Position numbers and translations under genes: made by a program. Below the pieces are notes generated by a model. That model made no database searches and had not been told where the DNA came from. It was given only the letters and a program-made list of their open reading frames with translations. From Eledone cirrhosa (taxonomy: Eukaryota), in NCBI GenBank assembly GCA_964016885.1, contig CAXHJY010000892.1:34391-98390 (forward strand): DNA of 64,000 nt, in the 5' to 3' direction. Below are positions 19,428 to 62,232 of this stretch, in pieces. The number at the start of each line of letters is the position of its first letter. Position 1 is the first letter of the stretch.

Positions 19428-19595
19428 ACATAAATACATATTTATTTACGTACGTATAGCACGGAGTGCATGTGCATAAACACACACGCACCGTGTTATA
19501 TTTTGACGGTATTGTATTAGCTCAAAGTACGAGAACAGAGCCGTTATATGTAAAAGAAACCAAAGAACGTTTACATACTCAAACAGTTTTTATTT

Positions 19596-19640
19596 GCTTA
19601 CAATGTTTCATCCATACCGTTGGGTAGGAATCATCAGAGC
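19596..19640 (-). ncRNA. Minimal type I hammerhead ribozyme in a solo pLTR/retrozyme-like monomer (~19430-19850)
   Basis: Minus strand: gct-CTGATGA-t-tcctacc-caac-ggtatgga-t-GAAA-cattg-TA-agc. Both core boxes are intact. Confidence 0.8.
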
Positions 19641-20424
19641 TTAATAAACACAGTGCTGAGTATAAGCTCTACCAAGCTTAGTCACACGAACAATCGGATT
19701 CCTATTTTAAAAGGTATCTATATTTGAAGTGCTAGTTAAACTTTAATTGGTTACCTACCTAGCTATGTGTGCTTACATATTTTACAAATTATTCCCTGTG
19801 ATTGTTCCATATGTTTATTTTGTATATATATGTCAATCTATTTCTAGTTGATATATATGTATATATGTATATTTATACGTATGTATATATATATATGTAT
19901 ATATGTATATTTATACGTATGTATATATATATATGTATATATGTATATTTATACGTATGTATATATATATATGTATATATGTATATTTATACGTATGTAT
20001 ATATATATGTATATATGTATATTTATACGTATGTATATATATATGTATATATGTATATTTATACGTATGTATATATATATATATATGTATATATATTTAT
20101 ACATATGTATATATATATATATATATGTATATTTATACATATGTATGTATATATGTGAATATATATATATATATGTATATATGTATATTTATACATATGT
20201 ATGTATATATGTGAATATATATATATATATGTATATATGTATATTTATACATATGTATGTATATATGTGAATATATATATATATGTATATATGTATATTT
20301 ATACATATGTATGTATATATGTGAATATATATATATGTATATTTATACATATGTATGTATATATGTGAATATATATATGTATATTTATACATATGTATGT
20401 ATATATGTATGTATATTTATACAT

Positions 20425-21080
20425 ATCATCATCATCATCATCATCATCAACGTTTAACGTCCGTGTTCCACGCTTGCATGGGTTTGGACGGGGGTATTCC
20501 CACTTGAGGCAAGAGTGATTGTCTTGCTCGCATAGGACTGTCTGGCAGGTTTTCTACAGTTGGATGCCCTTCCTAACACCAACCACATTTACAGTGTGGG
20601 TCTGGGAGGTTTTTACCGTGTTGCCTACACGGCCACATTACAGCGTGGACTGTGTGTTTTTTTGTCGTGACACCTACACGATCTCATTTGTTTCGGCCTG
20701 GATGTTGTGGCACCAACATAACTTTACATAGGAGGGGTTGTGTGGATGGGGTGTGGGTGGTGGGACGGGGGTGTATTTTGTTAGAGATGCCTACTGGCTG
20801 TAGTAGGTTTTACTATGTATTTAGGTAAGGCGGGTCTTCTCTATTACTGAGTACCGCCAAAGGTCTCGGTCCAGTGACATTGTCTTGGAGAGGTGTAAGT
20901 GTGTGAGGTCGGAGTTTATCAGCTCGTCCCAGGTTTTTCTAGGTCTGCCTATTCCGTGGCTACCGTCTATCTTTATTGCCCTGCACTTTGTTATACAGCT
21001 ATCGACTTTCATGCGCATCACGTGTCCGTACCAACGTAGCCTTCTCTCGAGTAAACAACATCTGATCCCTCTTATTTCTA

Positions 21081-21086
<6 letters not shown>
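20425..21086 (-). mobile_element. RTE 3' fragment, close paralogue of 29696-30340
   Basis: ORF 20821-21021 (GRPRKTWDELI), 3'UTR and (GAT)n tail. Confidence 0.93.
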
Positions 21087-21123
<37 letters not shown>

Positions 21124-21127
<4 letters not shown>

Positions 21128-21451
21128 AGTCCCTGGTATTCGTGGGGTTACACTCCTAGAGCAACCGCGAAAATTGGACGTAGTCCATAAAAATGCCTAG
21201 AAGCGTAAAAATATAATAAAAAATGAGGGACCGCCTTATGCAAAAGGGGTGTCCAATAGGCCAGCAAATATCATATTGTCATTAATAATTTAGCGTTAAA
21301 ACATATATTTTGACACAAAAAGAGTCATTAAAAAATTGCAGAAGATATTTACGATTCCGCGAAGATGCGGTGGTTTCCATGAACAATTATTAATTAGGTT
21401 CTTATGAAAATTTCGCGAATAACTGGGACCGCAAATGCCGAGGGTACACTC
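21124..21451. mobile_element. pogo/Tigger-like MITE
   Basis: TA|caatagtccctggtattcgtgg ... cgcaaatgccgagggtacactc|TA, degenerate CAGT-type TIRs. Confidence 0.6.
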
Positions 21452-21886
21452 TATATGTATGTGTGTATATATATATATATACACACAGCAGGGAAAAGCA
21501 GATGTAAAATGATGATGATGCTGATGATGATATATATATATATATACACACACACACACGTATATGTATGTATATGTCTGTGATTGGAAAGGAAACCAAT
21601 CACACACACACACACACACTACTTCAAGTATAGGTCATATTGTTTCTCAACAGTTTACCATTCTCTATAGTGGCACCTAAGATTAAGCATGATTATTAGA
21701 TGCCATAGAAAGGCAAAGTTTTGAGGGTATTCTGTAGTTGTTATATTAAATGTGGGATTTTGAAAGCTGAGGATAGCAAGACAAGTGATTCAAAAATGGA
21801 ACTTTGTAAAGTTCTCGTTTTCGGTGTGTGTGAATGTGTCTGGCTTAGAAAAGGTACACTGTATCCCTGCATGTTGTAAAAATCAG

Positions 21887-22327
21887 TTAACCCTTTAACA
21901 TTTAAACCAGTCGTATCTGGCCAGAATTCCCTCACCTCTTTCTGTTCAAACTGGCTGTAACCAGCTGCTCATACTGAGGTTAAGGTATTGTTCTCAACAT
22001 ACGTAATATGAAAATCTCATAGATTCATTATTATTTGAGATAATTTTGTGAGTTATAACCTTTACTATAAAAATCATCATCACCGTTTTACGTCCATTCT
22101 TCCACACTAGCATGGGTTAGACGGGTTGTCCTGTTGTGGGCAACGCCAGGTCAAGTGACTATGTCTTGCTCATAGAGAACTGATTTTGGCTTGATTTCTA
22201 CAGCTGGATGCCCTTCCTAACACCAACCTCATTTACAGTGAGTACTGGGTGCTTTTTTTTACCGTGGCGCCTACACAACTGAAAATATAACAGTATATAT
22301 AGAGTAATGTAAATGCCAAAGGGTTAA
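21887..22327. mobile_element. piggyBac-type MITE with a nested RTE 3' fragment (22075-22278, minus)
   Basis: TTAA|cccttt...aaaggg|TTAA. Further copies near 25320-25512 and 28152-28340. Confidence 0.8.
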
Positions 22328-22677
22328 AAGAGTTGGTGCCAGGAAAGGCACCCAGCTGTTATACCAGTATGGAATGGTTCATGTAAAAATGATGATGATG
22401 GTAGTATAATTGTAAATCTGAGCACTCGTAACGAGGACAGATGTTGGAAAAATGGAGCCACACAGATGCACGCTCAAATCTTTATGTCATTGGCTCTGCT
22501 GGGTCTCACCACAATTTCTGTGCAATAAGAAGAGGATTATTCATCCCAGTGCACCATGGAAGACAACACAAGATGAACATTCTGTCTACCACTGCCACAT
22601 ACATAACACTGTCAATCATTTTTGGGAAGAGGGGAAATCATTTAAAACGACCCCAGTGCATATGTTACTGGTACTTT

Positions 22678-23191
<514 letters not shown>

Positions 23192-23638
23192 GAGTTAAAG
23201 AGAAACAGGTAAAGGAAGAGAGAAAAACGAAAGAAAACAAAGAAAGAAGGAAAGCAGGTAAGGATAGAAAGAAAGAAAAAGCATAGAAAAGGAAAGAGAG
23301 AAGGACATGGAGGAAGAATGAAAGGAAAAAAAGGAAGAAAGAACGGAAGAGAAAAAGAAAGAAAGATGGTAAGAAGAGAGAGAGAGAGAGAGAGCTGAGT
23401 CAGGTGTTCTGTGGTAGGTAATTTGTTGTATATAATAAACTCTGTGGAAAAGTGGTTGTTTTCTGGTTAAAATTACTACAAATAGACATTCCATCACGTT
23501 GCCCTTCAGTGCAACTGTCTGTCTCTCTTCACCTCTACTTGTCACCCCCTCTCTCTCACTATCTATCTATGTATTTGTCTATCTATCTATTTTCTCACTT
23601 TTACTATTTATCTATCTCTGTGTCTGTCTATATATCTA

Positions 23639-23670
<32 letters not shown>

Positions 23671-23850
23671 ACTAAATTTAAAGCAAACCTATTACTTATG
23701 GTGAGCTACACTGATTGAGTGCTGATTAAGAGGTCAATAAGATCAGATGCCGTTCCAGATTGTAGGTCAGTAGGTTCAAATCCCATGGGGGTAACTAGCC
23801 TATTGTGTTGTTCATATTATTAGTGTCCATTATAATTATTACTACTACTA

Positions 23851-24040
23851 GGGCGGTGGATTGGCAGTATCGGTAGAGGGTCGGACGCCATGCTTTGACG
23901 CATAGAGTTATGGCCCTTGCCATTCTGAGTTAAAATCCCGCTGAGGTTAACTTTGCCTTTCATCCTTATGGGGTCGATAAAATAAAGTACCAGTAATACA
24001 CTGGGTAATTGCTGGCCTTGTGCTAAAAGTAGAAACAATT
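23851..24040 (+). mobile_element. Nin-domain tRNA-derived SINE (octopus OK/OR-like)
   Basis: Head tggcagtatcggtag...gagttaaaatcccg. Core gcctttcatccttatggggtcgataaaataaagtaccag. Confidence 0.8.
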
Positions 24041-24227
24041 ATAATTATTACTACTACTTAGCCCAATGTTTAACACAGCGAATAAGTAATCTTCAATTAC
24101 GCACACACACAAGTGTGTGTGTGTAATGCATGAAATTGCATGCTAGAAGGTGGCTGAATCGATAAAAATGCAGTTGTATGTTCAGCTTATGTAACTTTTT
24201 CTGCTAATACTATATATATCATGTATC

Positions 24228-24395
24228 ATATCATCATTTTACGTCCGCTTTTCCCTGCTTGCAAGGGTGGGACGGGAACTGATTCTGGCTTGATTTCTAC
24301 AGCTGGATGCCCTTCCTAACACCAACCTCATTTTACAGTGAGTGCTGGATGCTTTTTTGCCGTGGCACCTGCACGACCACTTTGCAGTGGTATGA
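24228..24395 (-). mobile_element. RTE 3'UTR fragment
   Basis: ctacagctggatgcccttcctaacaccaacc plus the terminal hairpin. Confidence 0.85.
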
Positions 24396-24443
24396 TAAGG
24401 ACCCCAGTCCCTATCATCTCATTTCTAATATATATATATATAT

Positions 24444-24693
24444 TTATGTAATAAACAACATAAGGCAACTACTCCATTTACCAGTGGTTTCCTAAAAGCA
24501 AAAAATTCCGCCTCCAATCATCAGAACGAAAAAATCCTGGTCTGTTTATTGAATTTGGATTCTAAAAACTTATTGAATCCAAATTCAATAAACAGACCAG
24601 GACCCTTCCACTCCGATGACCGAAAGCAACATTTTTTGCTTTCAAGAAACCACTGGTAAATGGAACAATTGCCCTATGTTGTTTATTACATAA
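24444..24693. repeat. Fold-back (119-bp arms, 12-nt loop) with an outward-pointing hammerhead in each arm
   Basis: Left arm (-): CTGATGA...GAAA-ccactgg-TA-aatgga. Right arm (+): ttccact-CcGATGA-ccgaaagcaa..ttgctttcaa-GAAA-ccactgg-TA-aatggaa. Confidence 0.9.
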
Positions 24694-24767
24694 CTATTAA
24701 GCTCTGTTACCTACATAGAGCACTCTTTTTTCCTGGACTTTTCCGACGGAATTACTTCACATATATT

Positions 24768-24833
<66 letters not shown>

Positions 24834-26059
24834 TTGTAAATTGTGGATCCATTGAAAATATGATTAGGTATATCTAATGTATAAGGCAGTGAATTGGCAG
24901 GGTCATTAGAATGTCGGGTAGAATGCTTTATGGTACTCGTTCTAGCTCTCTGAGTTCAAATAACGCCTCGAAAGGATGAAAGGCAAAGTACTGGGGTCGA
25001 TTCTTCATTTATCTGGAAGAAATCTGCTGTACTTAGGCCTAGAGCGGGATGGGCCCCGCCAGGCTTAAAATGCTCAAGAAAAGCCGTATGTCAATACAGC
25101 GCCTCTACAACTCTATCAGGAGTTACGGGATCATACCATACCATATCTAACATATATATATGAATGCATGTATTTAAGTGAATACATATGTCTTAGTGGT
25201 TAGGGTGTGGTGAAAGTTGATTAAATTGACTCCAGTAATTGACTGGTACTTTAATTTATCAAACTTGAAAAGATAAAAAACCAAAGTAGGCTAGCAGTGC
25301 TGGCTCCGTGTCTAAAGCCACAATTGGTCACTTAAATTCCTGCAGATTAAGGGACTGATCTTAGCATCTGTCCACCTCGGCAATTGTTCTCAAAATAAAT
25401 AATATCAAAATGTCATAGATTTGATATTATGAGAGATAATTATGTAAGATAAAGTGTTTATTACAAAAATACAATCGTATATATAGAGTAATGCAAATGC
25501 TTCAGGGTTAAATAGCCACTCCAACTCGCAGAGCTCACTCCGGCAGATGGCCAACTCCGACCTGATAACAGTCAGTAGGGAGGTTGTTTAGGGACCAAAG
25601 AATACCAGAACTATCCACTTCTACAAGCTTTCTATCGGAAAGTAGCCGATACTTCAACAGTTTGTGATCTTCAGGTTGTTGGGCAGGCAATGGGCAATGA
25701 TGCCTGGGTTTGTCTATATACAGCTAAACAGACTGAGCTAATTGTCAGTTAAATGTCCTGGCTACTGACACAGCACTCTATCAACAAGAGGTCAACAACT
25801 GCTGACCTCTCTATACAATTTAGTTATGTCTCTGTACATTCCAAGTGTCAAGTCCTTTGCTTTTCACACTGTGGGAGGAAGAGATACTGAGAGGTTGGGG
25901 GGGGAGGGAGGGAGGAAGCCATACTGAGAGGCGGAGAGAGGAAGGAGGGGAGGTGGTGGGGGAGGTCAATAAACTAATTAACAGCAATATAAATGTTGTT
26001 GATTTAAACAACTGTAGTGTAAATTTGTGGCAGTGTGCCAGTGTAAGGAATTATTAGCT

Positions 26060-26960
26060 GGTTGGCCAGTCTTCTTGCAGTGTTTGTTTAGTAACAGCCC
26101 TTTACATTCCTAGTTCAAATCCCACCGAAGACAGATTTTTTTCTCATTCTTCCAGTGGCCAACAAAATAAAGTACCAGTCAAATACTAGGGTTGATTAAT
26201 TGACTTTATCCTGTCTTCCAAATCGCTGGTTTAGTGCCTAAAATAGACACTATTATCATCATCATCATCAGAGCGGTGGTTTGGCAGCATCGGAAGAACA
26301 TCAGAAAACATGCTTTGTGGCATATAGTTATGTTTCTTTACGTTCCAGGCCCAAATCCTGCCATGGCCAGCTTTTCCCTTCATCCTTACGAAGTAGATAA
26401 AACAAAGTACCAGAGATGCACTGGGATTGATTCAATCAACTTTCCCATACTCCAAAATCATTGGCCTTGTGCCTAAATTAATTTTGGGGGGAAGGGGAAA
26501 GTCGACTAAATCAACCCCACCGCATGACTGGTACCCCACTTTATCAACCCTGTAAAGATGAAAGGCAAAGCTAACCTCAGCAGGACTCGAACTCAGAACG
26601 TAAAGGGCTGTAACTATATGCCACAAAGTACGACGTCCAACGCTTTAGGCACAAGGCCAATAATTTTGGAGAGAGGGGAATGTTGTTTAAACTGACCCCA
26701 GTGCATTACTGGTACTCTATTTTATCGACCCCGTAAAGATGAAAGGGAAAGCTCACCTCGGTGAGACCTGATCTCAGAATGTAAAGAGTAAAAAAAGATA
26801 TGCTTTAACAATTCTGCTAACCGACTGGCTTGGACCTGGTGCTTTATTGTTTTTCAGAGCTCATAGGGATGAAATAAATGCAAAGTAGACTTTGGCGGGA
26901 TTTGAAATCAGAGAGCAGAGTGGGAACAAACACTGCAAGGTATTTAATTAATGCTCTAAT
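26060..26960. mobile_element. Cluster of about 5 Nin-domain SINEs (two +, three -)
   Basis: Repeated ctttcatcc...ataaaataaagtaccag and its reverse complement ctggtac..tttatcgaccc..gatgaaagg. Confidence 0.75.
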
Positions 26961-27289
26961 GACTCAGCTAATTTATTGCCGGTGTAATAGACGTTAAAAC
27001 AAAACGAGAAAAAAATTTTGCAAAAAAATAAATATACGAGTATCAAAAAAATACAGGTTTCAATGAGAATGTGTCTGTCTGTGTGTCTTTAAGAGCTTTT
27101 TTTTATTTTTTATTTTACTCTTCTTTTCTTTTCTGTTCCGACGGGCGAAAAACTTGCAGAGTTTCCCAGGGAATTGTTTGAATAAAACAAAAAATGAACT
27201 GTGTTCACCATTGACTGAAACTTTGTTTTGTCTTTCTGACAAATTTCGGAAATAGCATAAAACAGGTTCCACACACATACATACACAAT

Positions 27290-27560
27290 ATTGTGTGTGT
27301 GTGTATTTGTGTGAGTGCATGTGTATGTGTATGAATGTGTGTATGTTTGCATGTGTCTGTATGTGTGTGAGTGTATGTATGTCTGTGTGTGCATGTGTCT
27401 GCGTGTGTATGTGCATGTGTGTGTGAGCATGTATGTGTATGTGTGTGAGTGTATGTGTGTAAGCGTCTGTCTGTATGTGTGTGAGCATGTGTGTGTGCAT
27501 GTGTCTGTATGTGTCTGCGTGTGTGTGTGTGTGTGAATGTATGTGTGAATGTACATGCGT
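27290..27560. repeat. Degenerate (TG)n microsatellite
   Basis: Low-complexity TG/TA run. Confidence 0.9.
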
Positions 27561-27737
27561 AACATGTGTACATTTGGTAAAAAACATAAGCAGAAATTAA
27601 AGAATGTTTTTGTGAATACCACACATTCACACACATCTATGTGTGAAAGTGTGGTGAAAATATAAGTAGCAATTACATAAGGTTTCATGAACATCATACA
27701 CACATTTATCCATACACATATATCTGTGTGTGTGTGA

Positions 27738-27791
<54 letters not shown>

Positions 27792-28571
27792 TCACATGCA
27801 CATATATACACACATAAAGTGCCTCAGCATGGCCGCAGTCAAATGATTGAAGCAGATGACAGAATAACCCCTATCCACACACACAAGTGTGTGAGTGTGT
27901 GTATATATTATATATATATATAAAGACTACAATAAAGTCATTTTCCACCACCTCGACTTTTTTCTCTCATCGTTGTTATATATATATAATAAATAATAAA
28001 GAAACCATTATTGCTGTTATTGTTCATTGTGGGGTGTGACTGTGGTGGTGAACATCTAGAAGGAAGGAGTGGAGAAGTAAACAGCTGTGGGGGCTAAATG
28101 GATATGGATAAAATATGTATAGGGGTCTATATGATGATATGATCCCTCATACCCTTTAGCATTTACATTACTCTATATTTACTATTATATTTTCATAGTA
28201 AAGGCTTTATCTCACATAATATCGAATCTATGAGATTTTGATATTATTTATTTTGAGAACAATACTATAACATCAGTATGAGCAGCTGGTTACAGTCATT
28301 TTGAACAGAAGGGCGAGAGTTTAAAAGCTAAACGGTTAAATGGCTTTGAGGGTGTAACCCAGTATTGTCACAGTTTCATGACTGAAACCAGTAAAAAAAA
28401 GAATAATAGAAAAATGTATTTCATAAGAAATATGGTAAACAAAACTGTTAAACCGAGTGAGAGAATACTTCAATCACCCAGTGTGTAGTTGGGTGGTCAA
28501 TAACCTTTCCTAATGGAAAACAGTGTCATGCCCCTGCATGGCCACAGTCAAATAGCTGAATCTACTAAAAG

Positions 28572-28605
<34 letters not shown>

Positions 28606-28615
28606 ACTTCTATAT

Positions 28616-28777
28616 CGGGGTTTGCCAAATATTTTCAAATGCGGAACCTTTTTTGGTTCAGAAACTTTTGTCTAATACTGTTATATGGTTATAATATAAA
28701 TATACTCCTCTCCCTTTTTTTACGGAGCCCCAGACACTGCTTTGCAGAACCCGCGGAACCCACTTTGGGAACCACTA
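28616..28777. mobile_element. Short hAT (Charlie-like) MITE
   Basis: cggggtttgccaaa...tttgggaaccacta with gcggaacc subterminal motifs. TSD-like flanks ttctatat / ttctatgc. Confidence 0.55.
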
Positions 28778-29695
28778 TTCTATGCCTTGCTTCTTCAACT
28801 TAAACTCTAGACATCCAGTAAATGATCTGCAAAACATATCTAAAAGCAGATTTGTTAATTCAAATGTCTACAGAATCTTTACTGGTGGACAGATTGTTGT
28901 GAAAATTTGCAATCTTATGATTTTGATGTTATATAGTTATTGTGCTATGAATGTCTTGCCAATGTGGTTTCATGTGGTACAGGACATTAAGAGTTAAGTA
29001 ATCCGATCCAGGTCCTATTTATTGAAACTTACTCAACTGCAAACATTCAGAGCCCCACCCACTATTCCACACTGAAGATTCACAACACACGCTTATATAT
29101 TTTTTTCTTTTTCTTTTTTACTTACAGGCGGGCATTGATCTGCAAATGTTCAGCCTGGGCCACAATCGCCCCATAGTTCTTAACAATCTGGGAGGGTTTA
29201 CAAAGGCCATTGGTACACTACTTTCCACCACCACCACCACCACCACTTCAGTAAAAACGTCAACCTCAGCCTCGTGAAAAAATTAATTTAAAAAAAAAAA
29301 AATATATGTATGTATATATGTGAATATATATATATATGTATATTTATACATATGTATGTATATTTATACATATGTATGTATATATGTGAATATATATATA
29401 TGTATATTTATACATATGTATGTATATATGTGAATATATATATATGTATATTTATACATATGTATGTATATATGTGAATATATATGTATGTATATATGTA
29501 TATTTATACATATGTATGTATATATGTGAATATATATGTATGTATATATGTATATTTATACATATGTATGTATATATGTCAATATATATATATGAATATA
29601 TATGTATGTATATATGTGAATATATATATATGTATATATGTGTATATATATATGTATATGTATATATATATGTATATATGTGTATATATATATAT

Positions 29696-32600
29696 CATCA
29701 TCAACGTTTAACGTCCGTGTTCCACGCTTGCATGGGTTTGGACGGGGGTTTTCCCACTTGAGGCAAGAGTGATTGTCTTGCTCGCATAGGACTGTCTGGC
29801 AGGTTTTCTACAGTTGGATGCCCTTCCTAACACCAACCACATTTACAGTGTGGGTCTGGGAGGATTTTACCGTGTTGCCTACACGGCCACATTACAGCGT
29901 GGACTGTGTGTTTTTTTGTCGTGACACCTACACGATCTCATTTGTTTCGGCCTGGATGGTGTGGCACGAACATAACTTTACATAGAAGGGGGCGGTGTGG
30001 ATGGGGTGGGGGTGGTGGGACGGGGGTGTATTTTGTTAGAGATGCCTACTGACTGTAGTAGGTTTTACTTTGTATTTAGGTAAGGCGGGTCTTCTCTATT
30101 ACTGAGTACCGCCAAAGGTCTCGGTCCAGTGACATTGTCTTGGTGAGGTGTAAGTGTGTGAGGTCGGAGTTTATCAGCTCGTCCCAGGTTTTTCTGGGTC
30201 TGCCTATTCCGTGGCTACCGTCTATCTTTATTGCCCTGCACTTTGTTATACAGCTATCGTCCTTCATGCGCATCACATGTCCATACCAACGTAGCCTTCT
30301 CTCTAGTAAACAACATCTGATCCCTCTTATTTCTAATTTTTTCCTTAGTTCGTTTATGCTTTGTCGTTCACGTATATTACTATTACACATCCAGTGGAGC
30401 ATGCAAGCTTCGTTTCTCTCTAGTCTGCGTATATCCTCTGCACACAATGCCCAGGTCTCACTGCCATGCAACATTGCTGTTCGTATGCAGGCATCGTACA
30501 GCCTGCCTTTCATTTTTAGGGAGAACCCTTTAGCGGCTAATAGTGGTATAAGCTCTCTGAACTTTTTCCACCCAGTTCTGACTCTAGCTACTGTACTTTC
30601 AGAGCACCCTCCCCCACTGCTGATTTTGTCACCCAGGTAACGGAAGCTGTCCACTATTTCTATAGAACCCTCTGCGCAGTTGAAAGAGCTAGTATTTTGT
30701 GGGCACTTGCTGCTACTTATTGCCCCAGAACACCGGCCACATGTAAAATCTATGTTCTTAGTTAGCTTACCTGTGATCCCACTACATCTTTTATGCACCC
30801 AAACTTTGCATTTGGGACACAAAATGGAATTTCTACCTACGCCTTTCCTACACAGTGCGCATGGCCACTTCCCGGAGGGGACCGCCACCTTATTTTCTTT
30901 CTTACAAACTAGAACTTTAGTCTTAGCCAGGTTAATTTTAAGGCCTTTTGATTCTAGGCCGTGCTTCTATGTTTGGAATTTCTTCTCTAGCTCGGCCATT
31001 GATTCAGCTATGAGCGTTAGATCATCTGCATATAGGAGTTCCTCTGTTATAGCCTGCAGGGCAATAATAAATAGTAGGGGGCTAAGAACAGAGCCCTGAT
31101 GGACACCAACTTTTACACTAAACTCTTCACTATATTCGTTGTTAATTCTAACCTTGCTGACTGTTTCTTTATACATGGCTTGTATAGCTCTCACAAGCCA
31201 TTCATCAACACCTAGTTTTCTAAGAGCCCACCAGATAATGGAACGGGGGACTCTGTCGAAGGCCTTCTCCAAGTCGACGAAAGCTAAGTATAGGGGTTTA
31301 CTTTTAGCTAGGTACTTCTCCTGTAGTTGTCGTACAATGAAAAGAGCGTCTGTGGTACTTTTTCCTGACACAAACCTGAACTGCATTTCATCTAGATCAA
31401 TTCACTCTCTGATTAGTTGCGCTATTACTTTTTCCGTGACCTTCATGACCTGGTCGATTAATTTAATGCCTCTATAGTTACTCCTATCTAGGGCATCTCC
31501 TTTACCCTTATAACAGTTAACGATAATGCTGCTACGCCAGTCCTTCGGAACAACCCCATTCTGTATGACTTGGTTGACTATCCGGGTGACCATGGTGTGT
31601 CCCACCGTACCAGATGCCTTCAGCATCTCGGCAACTATTTCCGAAGGCCCAGCCGCCTTGCCTGTCTTCATATCTTTGATTGCCTTACTTATTATACTAC
31701 CCTCGACTAACACTGCTGGTCCCTCTATTGGGTCGATGTGGGGGAGACTGTCTTTCTCCCATTTATTCTCCTCATTTAGTAGCCTTTCATAGTGACACTT
31801 CCAAGCTACCTTCTTATCGGCGTCGGTGATGGCAAGTACGCCGTCATCGTTAAGTACACACTTCTCCCTGACAATATCACTGTTTTCCTTGACACATTGC
31901 CTAGCAATCCTGAACACCTCACGTTTTTGGTCCTCACGTTGTAGAACATGCTTGAACTTTCTTTCCTCTGCTTCCCTTCTTGTGAAGTACACTTGTCTCC
32001 TAGCTTCCCTCCTGGCCACTTGATAGTCTTCTCTGCTTCCCCCATCCCGCCATACTTTCCAAGCCTGCTTTTTGGCCTTAATTGACCCCTCCACCTTACT
32101 GTTCCACCACCATGTTACTCTCCTCCTGCCTACAGGCCTGCTCCAGCCACAGACTTCGTCTGCCGCCGTCAGCAGGTTTGCTTTCAGGAATTCCCACTGT
32201 TCCTCTACCTTGTACGTCTCTAATTGCTCTTCCTCACTGTCGAAAGCATCAAGTAATATGCTTTGGAATTTATTTTTGGCTGTGGGGTCCTTTAGCTTCC
32301 ATATTTTTCTCCTGAGGATAGTCCTCTTCTGTTGTCTAGTACGTCTCGTCCTGACTATTAGGTCACTAATTATCAGTCTATGTTGGGAAGTGCATTCTTC
32401 ATGGGGGAGGGATTTAGTTTTTACGACAGTCACTTTGTCACGTCTTCTGGTAAGGATATAATCTACCTGGCTAGTATGTTCCCCTGATCTGTAGGTGATC
32501 AAGTGATTGTCTCGTTTTTTTAAGTTAGTGTTGCAGATAGTTAGGTTATTTGCGTCGCAGAATTCCAGGATTCTGGAGCCTTCCTCATTTCTAGTACCAA

Positions 32601-34043
32601 ACCCATAGCCTCCATGGATTTCGTCGTAGCCGTCACAATGTTGTCCAACGTGACCGTTTAGGTCACCTGCAATAATTATATAGTCACTGTCGGTTATTTG
32701 GGAGGTAGTGAGCATCAGTGTCTCATAGAATCTGTCTTTTATAGTGCTGGGCAGTCCGGATTGGGGTGCGTACGCAGATATTACTGTCACCGTCGTTCTA
32801 CTGAGGACAAGTCTTATTTTAATTATCCTGTCGTTCACTCTATTTACGTCTATTATCTTATCTGCCCACTTTTCTGCTACCATGATTCCTACTCCACCCA
32901 GCCCATTGTCGTTTACCACCCAGAAAAGCTTATAGCATCGTTTTCTACCCACAATGTATCTAGCAGATCCACCCCTCCACCTGGTCTCTTGAATACAACA
33001 AACATCGACCTCCTTACGTTCAAGCATTTCTACAACCTCGTTAGAGCGACCCTTTAAGGTGCCTACATTCAAGGTACCAAATCTGAAGTTTTGGATTGCG
33101 TTTGGGGGGTTGGAAAGGTGGGGAGCGGGGGGAGATGGGGTTATGTTAGCCATCCGCGGCCGAAACAAAGAGGCATGCTCGCATTCTCGTCCACGAGGTG
33201 TGATTGTCTTTAACTTTGGCATTGTCGCTGAGCATCCAGATTTTTCTCTCTTCAACTCTCCGGAACTCCGTAGTCCTTCCATCCTACATATCGAAGGCGA
33301 CCAGGTAAGCGATAGTATAGGCCTCTGGCTTATGATTGGTCCACGTAATAATAATGGTGGTGTATGTGGGGGAGGGAGGGGTGTTGAGTTGTTAGCGAGA
33401 AGGATAGGTTTAAGTGAGAACCCCGTATTAACGAACAAAAATACAAGATTTGTTTAGTAAAATACGCCAAAAACTTCCGTATTTTTACAAGCATGACAGA
33501 AATACAAGAGATTTGTTTTGGAAAATACATGGGGAATGGAAAGAGGATAGAAAAAAATGCTATTGGAAGGACTAAAAATGCTGTTGGAAGGACTAATGGA
33601 GTTAGGCGTATGTTAGAAGAGGTAGAAAAATGAGTACATTACATTATAACCATGAATGAATGAAGTTCAGCCACAAGTTTGGCGAAAGTGAATTACTTTG
33701 TCTTATATATGTATCTGGGTTGGGTAGAGAGAGAGAGAGGGGGGTGGTGGTGGTGATTTGACCGCATGTTGTAGAGTGTGGTGGAGGGGAAGAAGATATT
33801 AAGGAGCGGGAATTAAGAGTTTGAAATAATAACATATATTTAAAATATTGTTAAGAGTTTGAAGTAACAAATATATTTAAAATATTTGTATATGAGAAGA
33901 GTAGGTTTTAGCGAGAAGGATAGGTTTAAGTGAGAACCCCGTATTAATGAACAAAAATACAAGATTTGTTTAGTAAAATACGCCAAAAACTTCCGTATTT
34001 TTACAAGCATGACAGAAATACAAGAGATTTGTTTTGGAAAATA
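29696..34043 (-). mobile_element. Near full-length RTE LINE, inactivated
   Basis: APE in ORF 31402-33438 (GTLNVGTL, CIQETRW, IAGDLNGH, SQVDYIL, SQHRL). RT and PHD in 30967-31386 and 30076-30888. In-frame stops at 31402 and 30967 and an in-frame loss of FKTGCPWE before LLYADD. Confidence 0.96.
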
Positions 34044-34301
34044 TGTGTATATATATGTAAGTATGTATGTATACGTACATACATATATGAGATTTGTTTT
34101 GGAAAATATGTGTATATATATGTAAGTATGTATGTATACGTACATACATATATGAAATTTCGTTTTCATTTTTTTCAACTTATCGTTTTCGGTATGCCTG
34201 ACCGATTTAACTCACTCAATATGCAAATTAGGCTGCTCAGCCGTTAATTTTCATAAGGAAAGTATATACTTTCGAACGTTCAACTATCTGGCAGATGGGT
34301 A

Positions 34302-34346
34302 AACGGTGCTGATGATAGCTAACAAGCTTGAAACTAGTACATCGTT
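34302..34346 (+). ncRNA. Minimal type I hammerhead ribozyme, copy 1
   Basis: aacggtg-CTGATGA-t-agct-aaca-agct-t-GAAA-ctag-TA-catcgtt: 7-bp stem I and palindromic stem III (ACUAGU). Predicted cut after A34339. Confidence 0.9.
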
Positions 34347-34780
34347 CCTGTGTCAGTGTTGAACAAAAAGGTGACGTGGTTGCCTTAACACCGTATGGCA
34401 TAAATTCAGGCTGTTCGATTTGTTGACAAACAAACGAACAAAGCAGGCGTTATAATAAACGTCGGCTAAACTGATGCGTGCATATATGTATGTGTACCTG
34501 TATGCATATGTGTATATATGTATATATATATATATATATATATGCATGCTACTGTACGTCTGTATACATATATGTATGTACGTATACATACATACTTACA
34601 TTTAAGTAAGTGCCATACTAAGAGTGAGAAATGAAATTTCGTTTTCATTTTTTTCAACTTATCGTTTTCGGTATGCCTGACCGATTTAACTCACTCAATA
34701 TGCAAATTAGGCTGCTCAGCCGTTAATTTTCATAAGGAAAGTATATACTTTCGAACGTTCAACTATCTGGCAGATGGGTA

Positions 34781-34825
34781 AACGGTGCTGATGATAGCTA
34801 ACAAGCTTGAAACTAGTACATCGTT
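34781..34825 (+). ncRNA. Minimal type I hammerhead ribozyme, copy 2
   Basis: Identical to copy 1. Predicted cut after A34818. Confidence 0.9.
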
Positions 34826-35010
34826 CCTGTGTCAGTGTTGAACAAAAAGGTGACGTGGTTGCCTTAACACCGTATGGCATAAATTCAGGCTGTTCGATTT
34901 GTTGACAAACAAACGAACAAAGCAGGCGTTATAATAAACGTCGGCTAAACTGATGCGTGCATATATGTATGTGTACCTGTATGCATATGTGTATATATGT
35001 ATATATATTT

Positions 35011-36190
35011 TTTTTTCATGACGTTATTATTGTTAATTTTACTGATGTAGTATTAACTTATTAACTTGGATATTTACCATGCGGTATTCTAATCCTATTG
35101 TATCTCTCTCAGTTATTTACCATGCGACCCTCAGTTCCTACCCCCCCCCCCCCCCTCTATGCACTTCTTTAAGGCTTACTACCCTGTCTTTAACCTAATT
35201 CATTCAATCTGAAAATATTGAAGAGATAAGACACTTTGCCATTCTTCTCTGCTAAAATGTACCAGTAGAGCTGATTCAAATTTTCCCAGCCAGCCATCCA
35301 CCTAATCTACGAAGGTATTTTAGCCTACATATTGTCGTTAATATTATGATGTTCCCTGCTGTATTAGCGTTAAATTTTCCCTGCTGTATTAGCGATAAAT
35401 TTTCGAGGGTTTCTCTTAGTAGCTTTTTCATGTCGTTAATATTATGATGTTCCCTGCTGTATTAGCGTTAAATTTTCCCTGCTGTATTAGCGATAAATTT
35501 TCGAGGGTTTCTCTTAGTAGCTTTTTTCATGACGTTATTATTGTTAATTTTACTGATGTAGTATTAACTTATTAACTTGGATATTTACCATGCGGTATTC
35601 TAATCCTATTGTATCTCTCTCAGTTATTTACCATGCGACCCTCAGTTCCTACCCCCCCCCCCCCTCTATGCACTTCTTTAAGGCTTACTACCCTGTCTTT
35701 AACCTAATTCATTCAATCTGAAAATATTGAAGAGATAAGACACTTTGCCATTCTTCTCTGCTAAAATGTACCAGTAGAGCTGATTCAAATTTTCCCAGCC
35801 AGCCATCCACCTAATCTACGAAGGTATTTTAGCCTACATATTGTCGTTAATATTATGATGTTCCCTGCTGTATTAGCGTTAAATTTTCCCTGCTGTATTA
35901 GCGATAAATTTTCGAGGGTTTCTCTTAGTAGCTTTTTCATGTCGTTAATATTATGATGTTCCCTGCTGTATTAGCGTTAAATTTTCCCTGCTGTATTAGC
36001 GATAAATTTTCGAGGGTTTCTCTTAGTAGCTTTTTCATGTCGTTAATATTATGATGTTCCCTGCTGTATTAGCGTTAAATTTTCCCTGCTGTATTAGCGA
36101 TAAATTTTCGAGGGTTTCTCTTAGTAGCTTTTTTCATGACGTTATTATTGTTAATTTTACTGATGTAGTATTAACTTGGATATTTACCAT
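35011..36190 (+). repeat. Nested tandem repeats in the RTE 5' region (~510-bp unit containing 98-bp subunits)
   Basis: 'catgacgttatt' at 35017, 35528 and 36135. 98-bp subunits start at 35333, 35431, 35842, 35940 and 36038. Confidence 0.92.
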
Positions 36191-36448
36191 GCGACCCTCA
36201 GTTCCTACCTCACAATTTCCCTCCCTCCCACCCCCACACACCACCATAGTCTATTCGACCAATCAAACCTAGCATGCCATTTCCACTGCTGCTGCTGCTA
36301 CTACCTGCCTAACTCTCTCCTCCTCTGGCGCATCCCAACACACCCTGCCATTACCCCACCACCACTGTCCTTCTAGCCCTCAATTTTCCCACCGTTATGG
36401 ATGGATGAGCTGGGAATACACGAGCAACTCTGAATCAATAGATGAAAT

Positions 36449-45616: not shown

Positions 45617-46288
45617 TAATGTATAAAATCAATACAATATAATTACCTCATTACCAGAGGTTTCCCGAATGAGGCGAATACGAAATAAACGACTTCATTC
45701 GTTCGTCAGACGAGGCAATATAAAACATGGGCAAATACTTAGAAAAACACATCAAGAAAATCAAAAAAAATATATAGATAAATGAAATAGAAATTGAAAT
45801 ATATAAAAATCTATCAAGAAAAATAGTTAGGTGTGTGTATGTGTATGTATATACGCTCATAGATGTGCATATATGTATATGTGCACGTGTAAATTTATGG
45901 TTAGAAAGTGTGCGTAATTATAAAAATTTAGGGCAAATGTATCTATATGTCTGTATTATACAGACGGAAATGGTTACTTCGTAAAAATAAGAAAATAAAG
46001 TCGCGCGCATAAAAACGCCTGGACACTCGTACACTTAGATGCGGAAAGAAAGGAGATAAAGAGAGTATAATAAATAAAAGAAAAATATCTATTACGATAT
46101 ATTTATAAAAATATAGTAACGATAAATTAGAAAGACAAGATAGAAAGAAAAAATTAAAGAAAACAAAAAAAGCGGGGGTACATATATTGCCTCGTCTGAC
46201 GAACGAATGAAGTCGTTTATTTCGTATTCGCCTCATTCGGGAAACCTCTGGTAATGAGGTAATTATATTGTATTGATTTTATACATTA
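45617..46288. mobile_element. Non-coding PLE remnant: perfect 106-bp inverted repeats (45617-45722 / 46183-46288) around a 460-bp spacer
   Basis: The arms are exact reverse complements and each contains an HHR. Confidence 0.9.
46189..46260 (+). ncRNA. Type I hammerhead ribozyme (mirror copy 45645-45716, minus)
   Basis: gcctcgt-CTGACGA-a-cgaatga...tcattcg-g-GAAA-cctctgg-TA-atgaggt, with a 7-bp stem I. Confidence 0.88.
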
Positions 46289-62159: not shown

Positions 62160-62232
62160 GGTCAGGTAACTCAGTCGGTAGAGCAGCGGACCGGCAATCC
62201 GAAGGTCATGGGTTCGATTCCCACCCTGATTA
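62160..62232 (+). tRNA. tRNA-like sequence (pseudo-tRNA or SINE head; nominal anticodon GGC)
   Basis: GGTCAGG-TA-ACTC-AGTCGGTA-GAGC-A-GCGGA-CCGGCAA-TCCGA-AGGTC-ATGGG-TTCGATT-CCCAC-CCTGATT-A, then TTTT. It has C33 and one mismatch in each of the D, anticodon and T stems. Confidence 0.7.

Follow-up and report, generated by a model that had tools for sequence, protein, structure and literature searches.

An 8.9-kb insert and its parent copy

The window (G000:C919:34391-98390), which is the whole stretch of 64,000 nucleotides that was analysed, is the terminal part of an unplaced contig of 98 kb, in a genome assembly of 3.0 Gb whose repeat types suggest an octopod. Within it, an AT-rich minisatellite is interrupted by an insert that is a copy of a segment of C18 (Table 1), referred to here as the parent. 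The insert carries two inverted repeats, a fold-back of a short repeat and a pair of inverted SINEs, and its left edge is formed by the 3' fragment of a LINE. A near-full-length LINE of the same family follows the right part of the minisatellite. The alignment of insert and parent consists of two parts on either side of a long GAT run. Among the scored matches only C18 and the window contig carry the insert, and there was no third copy.

Table 1. Features of the insert and its surroundings, in window coordinates
Feature	Position	Strand	Remarks
AT-rich target minisatellite, left part	19851..20426	.	interrupted by the insert
Whole insert	20427..29301	-	copy of G000:C18:27270590-27279024, 8,289 aligned bases
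3' fragment of a young RTE-like LINE	20427..21086	-	presumed RNA 3' end; tail (CAT)7, (CAT)3 in the parent
(GAT)171 run	22680..23191	+	stands in place of ~95 bp of mixed triplets in the parent
Fold-back of a ~120-bp repeat with predicted hammerhead	24444..24693	-	19/91 minus-strand As changed to G
Inverted SINE pair	26309..26624	-	75% complementary in the parent; 21/101 minus-strand As changed to G (26341-26588)
A run, endpoint of the copy	29290..29302	+	A12 in the parent; presumed 5'-truncation point
AT-rich target minisatellite, right part	29303..29695	.	same GTGAAT-containing unit resumes
Near-full-length LINE of the same family	29696..34043	-	endonuclease, reverse transcriptase, PHD finger; two stops

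Colinearity with C18 is limited to the insert, i.e. to ~9 kb of the 98-kb contig. Thus the contig is no haplotig of C18, and this explanation was rejected. The insert itself is colinear with the parent apart from repeat-length gaps; it has no splice junction, and no intron loss relative to the parent was seen. An unspliced RNA template would equally give such colinearity without intron differences. In the 147+91 selected frames from C18:27.21-27.38 Mb there were no non-transposon Pfam matches that would point to a host gene near the parent. The only Pfam matches were two to zf-RVT, in a frame search that short exons would escape.

Compared with the parent, the insert has 61 substitutions, namely 48 T>C, 3 A>G, 3 G>A, 4 C>T and 3 transversions. 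The 13 substitutions other than T>C correspond to 0.16% of the aligned bases, and this low background divergence suggests that the copy is either very young or within allelic variation. The left 2.2 kb of the insert is devoid of T>C changes. Two repeats are longer in the copy: the GAT run and an A run at 28572-28604, which measures 33 in the copy and 8 in the parent. Both gains would fit polymerase slippage and could also be allelic; for (GAT)171, neither reverse-transcriptase slippage nor an allelic difference is a firm explanation. A lone GAC at 22686 within this run could be one further T>C.

Polarity of the changes in the fold-back

In a preliminary description of the window, the fold-back had been proposed to stem from an A-to-I edited hairpin RNA that was reverse-transcribed into the genome. 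Gap-free alignment of the two arms (24444-24562 and 24575-24693) reproduced the mismatch tally given there, i.e. 20 mismatches of which 11 are A/G, 8 C/T and 1 T/G, with no G/A or T/C, as well as the perfect pairing of the outermost 19 bp and the innermost 28 bp. The claimed strand asymmetry, with G.U pairs on the minus strand and A.C on the plus strand, matches the predicted folds: the minus strand forms a near-complete duplex with G.U pairs (-174.7 kcal/mol), the plus strand a broken one (-127.2 kcal/mol). The 19:0 split of the transitions between the strands has a two-sided p of ~4e-6. The lone T/G mismatch is a family polymorphism which is present in the parent copy too. Two other fold-backs of the window, at 10.7-11.2 kb and 51.7-52.1 kb, have mixed mismatches, as had been stated.

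The arm is a member of a young family of repeats, with 1,143 candidates, 40 of which were scored, and 129 tight fold-backs. Polarised by the family majority, each of the 19 transitions is T>C on the plus strand and hence A>G on the minus strand, 8 of them in the left arm (24469-24527) and 11 in the right arm (24603-24674). The parent locus gives the same answer for both arms: its hairpin (G000:C18:27274206-27274463) has the same unique flanks and carries 0/19 of the changes. The A-to-G direction on the minus strand, which the preliminary description had assigned to both arms, is thereby confirmed, and the consensus shows neither mixed polarity nor a predominance of C-to-T. Since one parent copy supplies both arms, their derivation from two different subfamilies is ruled out.

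As control served 76 loci, 30 of which were selected by right-arm similarity, which favours consensus-like copies, and 46 of which came from the first 50 entries in the list of 129 pattern matches. From these loci 55 arm pairs were obtained, and five polymorphic columns were excluded. The 54 arm pairs other than that of the window (53 places) had a mean of 2.1 changes of mixed type, and none had more than 2 one-strand A>G changes, compared with 19 in the window copy. Two family fold-backs with identical loops, G000:C3:62309231 and C3:62313940, lie 4.7 kb apart and are probably a local duplication.

Ordinary mutation combined with selection for a minus-strand hairpin that tolerates G.U pairs would account for a minus-strand fold that is nearly intact, its energy being close to that of the parent copy (-182.0 kcal/mol). 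However, selection for G.U pairs would admit C>U as well, whereas all 19 changes are A>G, and with 13 background substitutions in 8,289 bases there was too little time for 19 in 250 bp. Already contradicted by the polarity result, such selection has practically no probability.

The preliminary description had labelled the repeat a hammerhead ribozyme. The predicted fold of an unedited family copy is a three-way junction; it has a 10-bp stem II and a stem III that is short and palindromic, together with the motifs CUGAUGA and GAAA, and thus contains the type-I hammerhead core CUGANGA / GAAA / UH around three stems. Core motif and predicted fold, on which the label is based, are in line with it, but Rfam returned no hammerhead match for the family repeat. 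In the right arm of the window hairpin, the core is altered to CCGATGA. As the copy extends through the predicted cleavage site, the RNA molecule from which it would derive was uncut.

Confinement to inverted repeats

Forty of the T>C changes are located in two places, 19 in the fold-back and 21 in the inverted SINE pair. Of all inverted pairs in the copied segment, these two are the closest. With two of the 48 T>C set aside as a shifted microsatellite edge, 40/196 Ts are changed inside the two inverted repeats and 6/2,408 outside (p=1e-40). The corresponding change on the opposite strand, A>G, is found inside them at 0/190 (p=2e-13). Folding predicts the edited As to be paired at 19/19 sites of the hairpin and 15/21 of the SINE pair. 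For the SINE pair, the pooled family majority has T like the parent at 16/21 sites and C at 5/21, so that at these five the family gives no polarity. One of the scattered T>C changes, at 24100, lies by eye at the base of a short CA/TG hairpin with the minus-strand A seemingly facing C; a local fold leaves 24100 unpaired.

This distribution bears on the possibility that the changes arose on DNA, either in a DNA-level duplication or in a cDNA deaminated on one strand, e. g. if ADAR attacked the DNA strand in an RNA:DNA hybrid. Editing of deoxyadenosine by ADARs is described for model hybrids in a section of PMC12925331, and the insert lacks a splice junction that would prove an RNA stage. Yet a hybrid spanning the whole copy would not restrict the changes to intramolecular inverted repeats, and the parent, which has the same repeats, is unchanged. 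An origin on DNA thus appears very unlikely.

Neighbour preference and a second, probably edited SINE

The ADAR motif described in passages of PMC9989829 and PMC3197674 comprises depletion of a 5' G and excess of a 3' G. In the insert, 3/28 As with a 5' G are edited, compared with 37/164 of the others (p=0.21), and a 3' G is favoured (9/30, p=0.22), while a 5' U is not (8/44). Thus the 5'-neighbour bias, which the preliminary description had suggested as a check, has the direction expected for ADAR but does not reach significance in the insert alone; the same holds for the 3' G.

A second SINE on the same contig, outside the window (G000:C919:2198-2532), departs from 23 siblings at 27 positions, 24 of which are T>C; none of the siblings has more than 4 T>C. 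Here As with a 5' G are edited in 0/18 cases (p=0.002), those with a 5' U in 8/12 and those with a 3' G in 13/28. The element ends in a (CAT)n tail, and no adjacent inverted partner of it was found. Judged from its sequence, it is a second, independent edited retrocopy. When it is pooled with the insert, both the 5' G depletion (p=0.003) and the 3' G excess (p=0.004) become significant. When the contig was scanned in 300-nt bins, family cover was sufficient in 98 of them, and eight were flagged: three with clusters of the insert, two with the second SINE, two with mixed changes in a LINE and one with a microsatellite.

Changed letters in read-derived contigs

The preliminary description had asked for the edited bases to be confirmed in genomic reads. 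For the region 23700-27250 we used three contig sets (X1-X3) from one sample, for which the kind of data is not on record. With 1.4 Gb of contigs, flat depth of unique sequence and huge depth of repeats, they are probably whole-genome DNA. They may be the source of the assembly itself and so do not stand for an independent individual. X1-X3 hold 0.52-0.59 of the words; a run with only the parent allele would reach up to 0.69.

For the SINE pair the support is direct. A contig of X1 (26307-26517, depth 11.5) covers 12 edited sites and one of X2 (26311-26463, depth 8.4) covers 11, both with 0 differences from the window. At 26350/26351 the unedited T is present beside the edited allele, at a depth of 11.3 of 22.8 in X1 and 11.4 of 19.8 in X2; X3 has only T there. 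X1 and X2 also hold a parent-like contig over 25463-26186. For this part of the sites, the edited letters thus appear to occur as DNA at a depth similar to that of the parent allele.

For the hairpin the support is indirect. Its edits were not seen in the run contigs, which have T throughout at 24509/24512 (X1) and 24621 (X1-X3); these sites are at a family depth of ~2,000-fold, where rare paths drop out. In the RAD run X5, which does not cover the diagnostic unique sites, 231/233 family reads have T at 24509; this is uninformative. Edited letters were thus seen at 12 sites of the SINE pair, in two of the three contig sets, and at none of the hairpin.

These data also weigh on a sequencing, assembly or polishing artefact, whereby the pattern would go back to errors in fold-backs or to RNA reads that had entered the consensus of a contig without placement. 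The contig is indeed an unplaced 98-kb piece, the hairpin edits are missing from the run contigs, the T>C direction is common to both edited elements of the contig, and clustered-mismatch artefacts in older trace data are mentioned in part of PMC2873906. Against this, the edited SINE-pair haplotype occurs in two runs at a depth of 8-11 beside the unedited allele, the 54 other fold-back pairs of the same assembly are clean, and the second SINE has an ADAR-like neighbour pattern. We consider such an artefact highly improbable.

Ends of the insert

The left edge of the insert coincides with the (CAT)n tail of the 660-bp LINE fragment, which has expanded from 3 to 7 repeats. The fragment lies in minus orientation, i.e. 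on the strand where the changes read A>G. It shows 0 substitutions and one 1-base gap relative to the C18 copy, and 91-97% identity to five other copies. From its architecture and tail, we regard the LINE as an RTE-clade member. The neighbouring full-length relative has Exo_endo_phos, RVT_1 and PHD matches in one frame broken by two stops, and no T>C excess against five siblings.

No target-site duplication is readable inside the tandem repeat; it would be ATAT at most. Neither junction is spanned by a read. Searches with three pieces of the left flank and one of the right flank gave only repeat matches among the scored matches, with neither an empty site nor an allelic flank. The target minisatellite directly adjoins a young repeat at 19430-19700, which is 91-98% identical to many copies and has a hammerhead-like motif on its minus strand.

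LINEs of the stringent type recognise the 3' end of their RNA, show slippage at the tail and mobilise in trans RNAs that bear a LINE 3' end, as parts of PMC3747384 describe, and RTE LINEs are active in octopus according to portions of 10.1101/2021.01.24.427974 and PMC13282606. Because the RNA of the insert would end in a LINE 3' tail, the mobiliser is probably the RTE-like LINE rather than a hammerhead element. Alternatively, ADAR-edited RNA could have entered DNA by a Penelope-type reverse transcriptase or by RNA-templated repair of a break in the minisatellite. The unreadable target-site duplication, the hammerhead-like repeat just left of the minisatellite and the internal (GAT)171 run, which suggests template jumps, would fit these routes. 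They do not, however, account for a copy that starts precisely at the lengthened tail of a young LINE fragment, nor for the fact that the target minisatellite is bordered on its other side by a LINE from the same family, and we regard them as unlikely.

Proposed mechanism

Most probably, ADAR edited a minus-strand transcript of the C18 region, and an RTE-like LINE then reverse-transcribed this transcript into a new site. Transcription would have proceeded on the minus strand from C18:27279024 to 27270590. In the transcript, the hammerhead fold-back and the inverted SINE pair are predicted by folding to form long duplexes, in each of which ADAR would have deaminated ~21% of the As, in both arms of a single strand. 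The LINE protein may then have bound the LINE 3' fragment at the end of the RNA and primed on the nicked AT-rich minisatellite, possibly through ATAT/CAT microhomology and with slippage on the tail. Reverse transcription would have read inosine as G, copied 8.9 kb and halted at a U12 run. The core of the preliminary proposal, an edited RNA reverse-transcribed into the genome, agrees with the 19/19 polarity and the unedited parent. The unit, however, appears to be an 8.9-kb RNA with a second edited duplex, not the hairpin alone.

The similar depth of the edited and the parent allele points to an event in the germline. It is likely that, in this genome, LINE machinery captures long host transcripts after ADAR editing and writes them into the germline, by a route in which single edited molecules are preserved.

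A-to-I editing counts as non-heritable, and the pair of parent and copy would show that edits can become mutations in animal DNA. They would be fixed in bursts of ~20 per duplex, and ADAR and an active LINE would have to meet the same RNA in germline cells. If this is true, LINE capture of edited transcripts is an RNA-to-DNA mutation route, and the 8.9-kb copy records one germline RNA in phase, with the parent still present to compare it with. Since a very young copy looks 8-9% diverged in the hairpin, the dating of such repeats would be biased. The claim is directly testable, as it can be read exactly from the parent which As are expected to be edited in RNA.

Relation to known systems

A close parallel comes from avian retroviruses, in which A-to-G hyperediting is reported for the U3 of Rous-associated virus and an inverted repeat of avian leukosis virus (sections of PMC12925331). 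There, as here, one-strand A>G clusters lie in an inverted repeat, and reverse transcription, which is inferred for the present case, turns RNA into DNA. The present case differs in that the transcript is cellular, mostly non-coding and 8.9 kb long and was presumably moved in trans by a non-LTR element; its product resides in the genome of the host, and the parent without edits can still be compared. LTR retrotransposons of vertebrates that were edited by APOBEC likewise carry inherited deaminase marks of the retro-cycle, in strand-biased clusters polarised against a consensus (PMC4866542, PMC2873906, in part). Their G>A changes are made on cDNA, whereas the changes found here are A>G and confined to duplex-forming repeats. 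A screen covered by the same extracts found no APOBEC marks in 19 invertebrates; A>G by ADAR is not a subject of these extracts.

ADAR hyper-editing of inverted SINE pairs in RNA (parts of PMC3197674 and PMC9989829) has the same type of substrate and ~20 sites per cluster; its 5' G depletion and 3' G excess recur in the insert as trends, which are significant only on pooling with the second SINE. There the pattern consists of transient differences between RNA and DNA, but here it is found in DNA. Trans-mobilisation by LINEs, in the portion of PMC3747384 concerned with it, involves a LINE 3' end whose tail of short repeats has another length after insertion, as in the insert. Unlike a mobilised SINE, the cargo here comprises ~8 kb of upstream unique and repeat sequence. 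In this it resembles a very long 5' transduction.

Penelope-type elements contain minimal type-I hammerheads with a short palindromic helix III (excerpts of PMC4209133), and the repeat of the fold-back shares with them the core motifs, the long helix II and the short palindromic helix III. In contrast to these, two copies here form a fold-back that would sequester the ribozyme, and the repeat would have been cargo and a substrate of editing rather than the mobile element itself.

A literature search, which left most subscription papers outside, found no report of ADAR edits fixed in DNA from cellular RNA or in cephalopods. A look-up of terms in two recent papers on octopus repeats (PMC13282606, PMC12988792) gave no mention of ADAR or editing, and PMC3880073 and PMC4189041 contributed nothing further. 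Work by Carmi et al. from 2011 may bear on how new such A>G fixation is.

Other repeats of the window

Another hammerhead-like motif forms an inverted pair at 45709 (-) and 46196 (+), with 99% identity over 109 nt and without edits. Upstream of the LINE open reading frame, 33300-36200 consists of nested tandem duplications with units of 65, 98 and ~500 bp, and the stretch 33100-34000 has 88-99% identity with many LINE copies. A tRNA-like Rfam match at 62160-62232 (51.5 bits) is possibly the head of a SINE.
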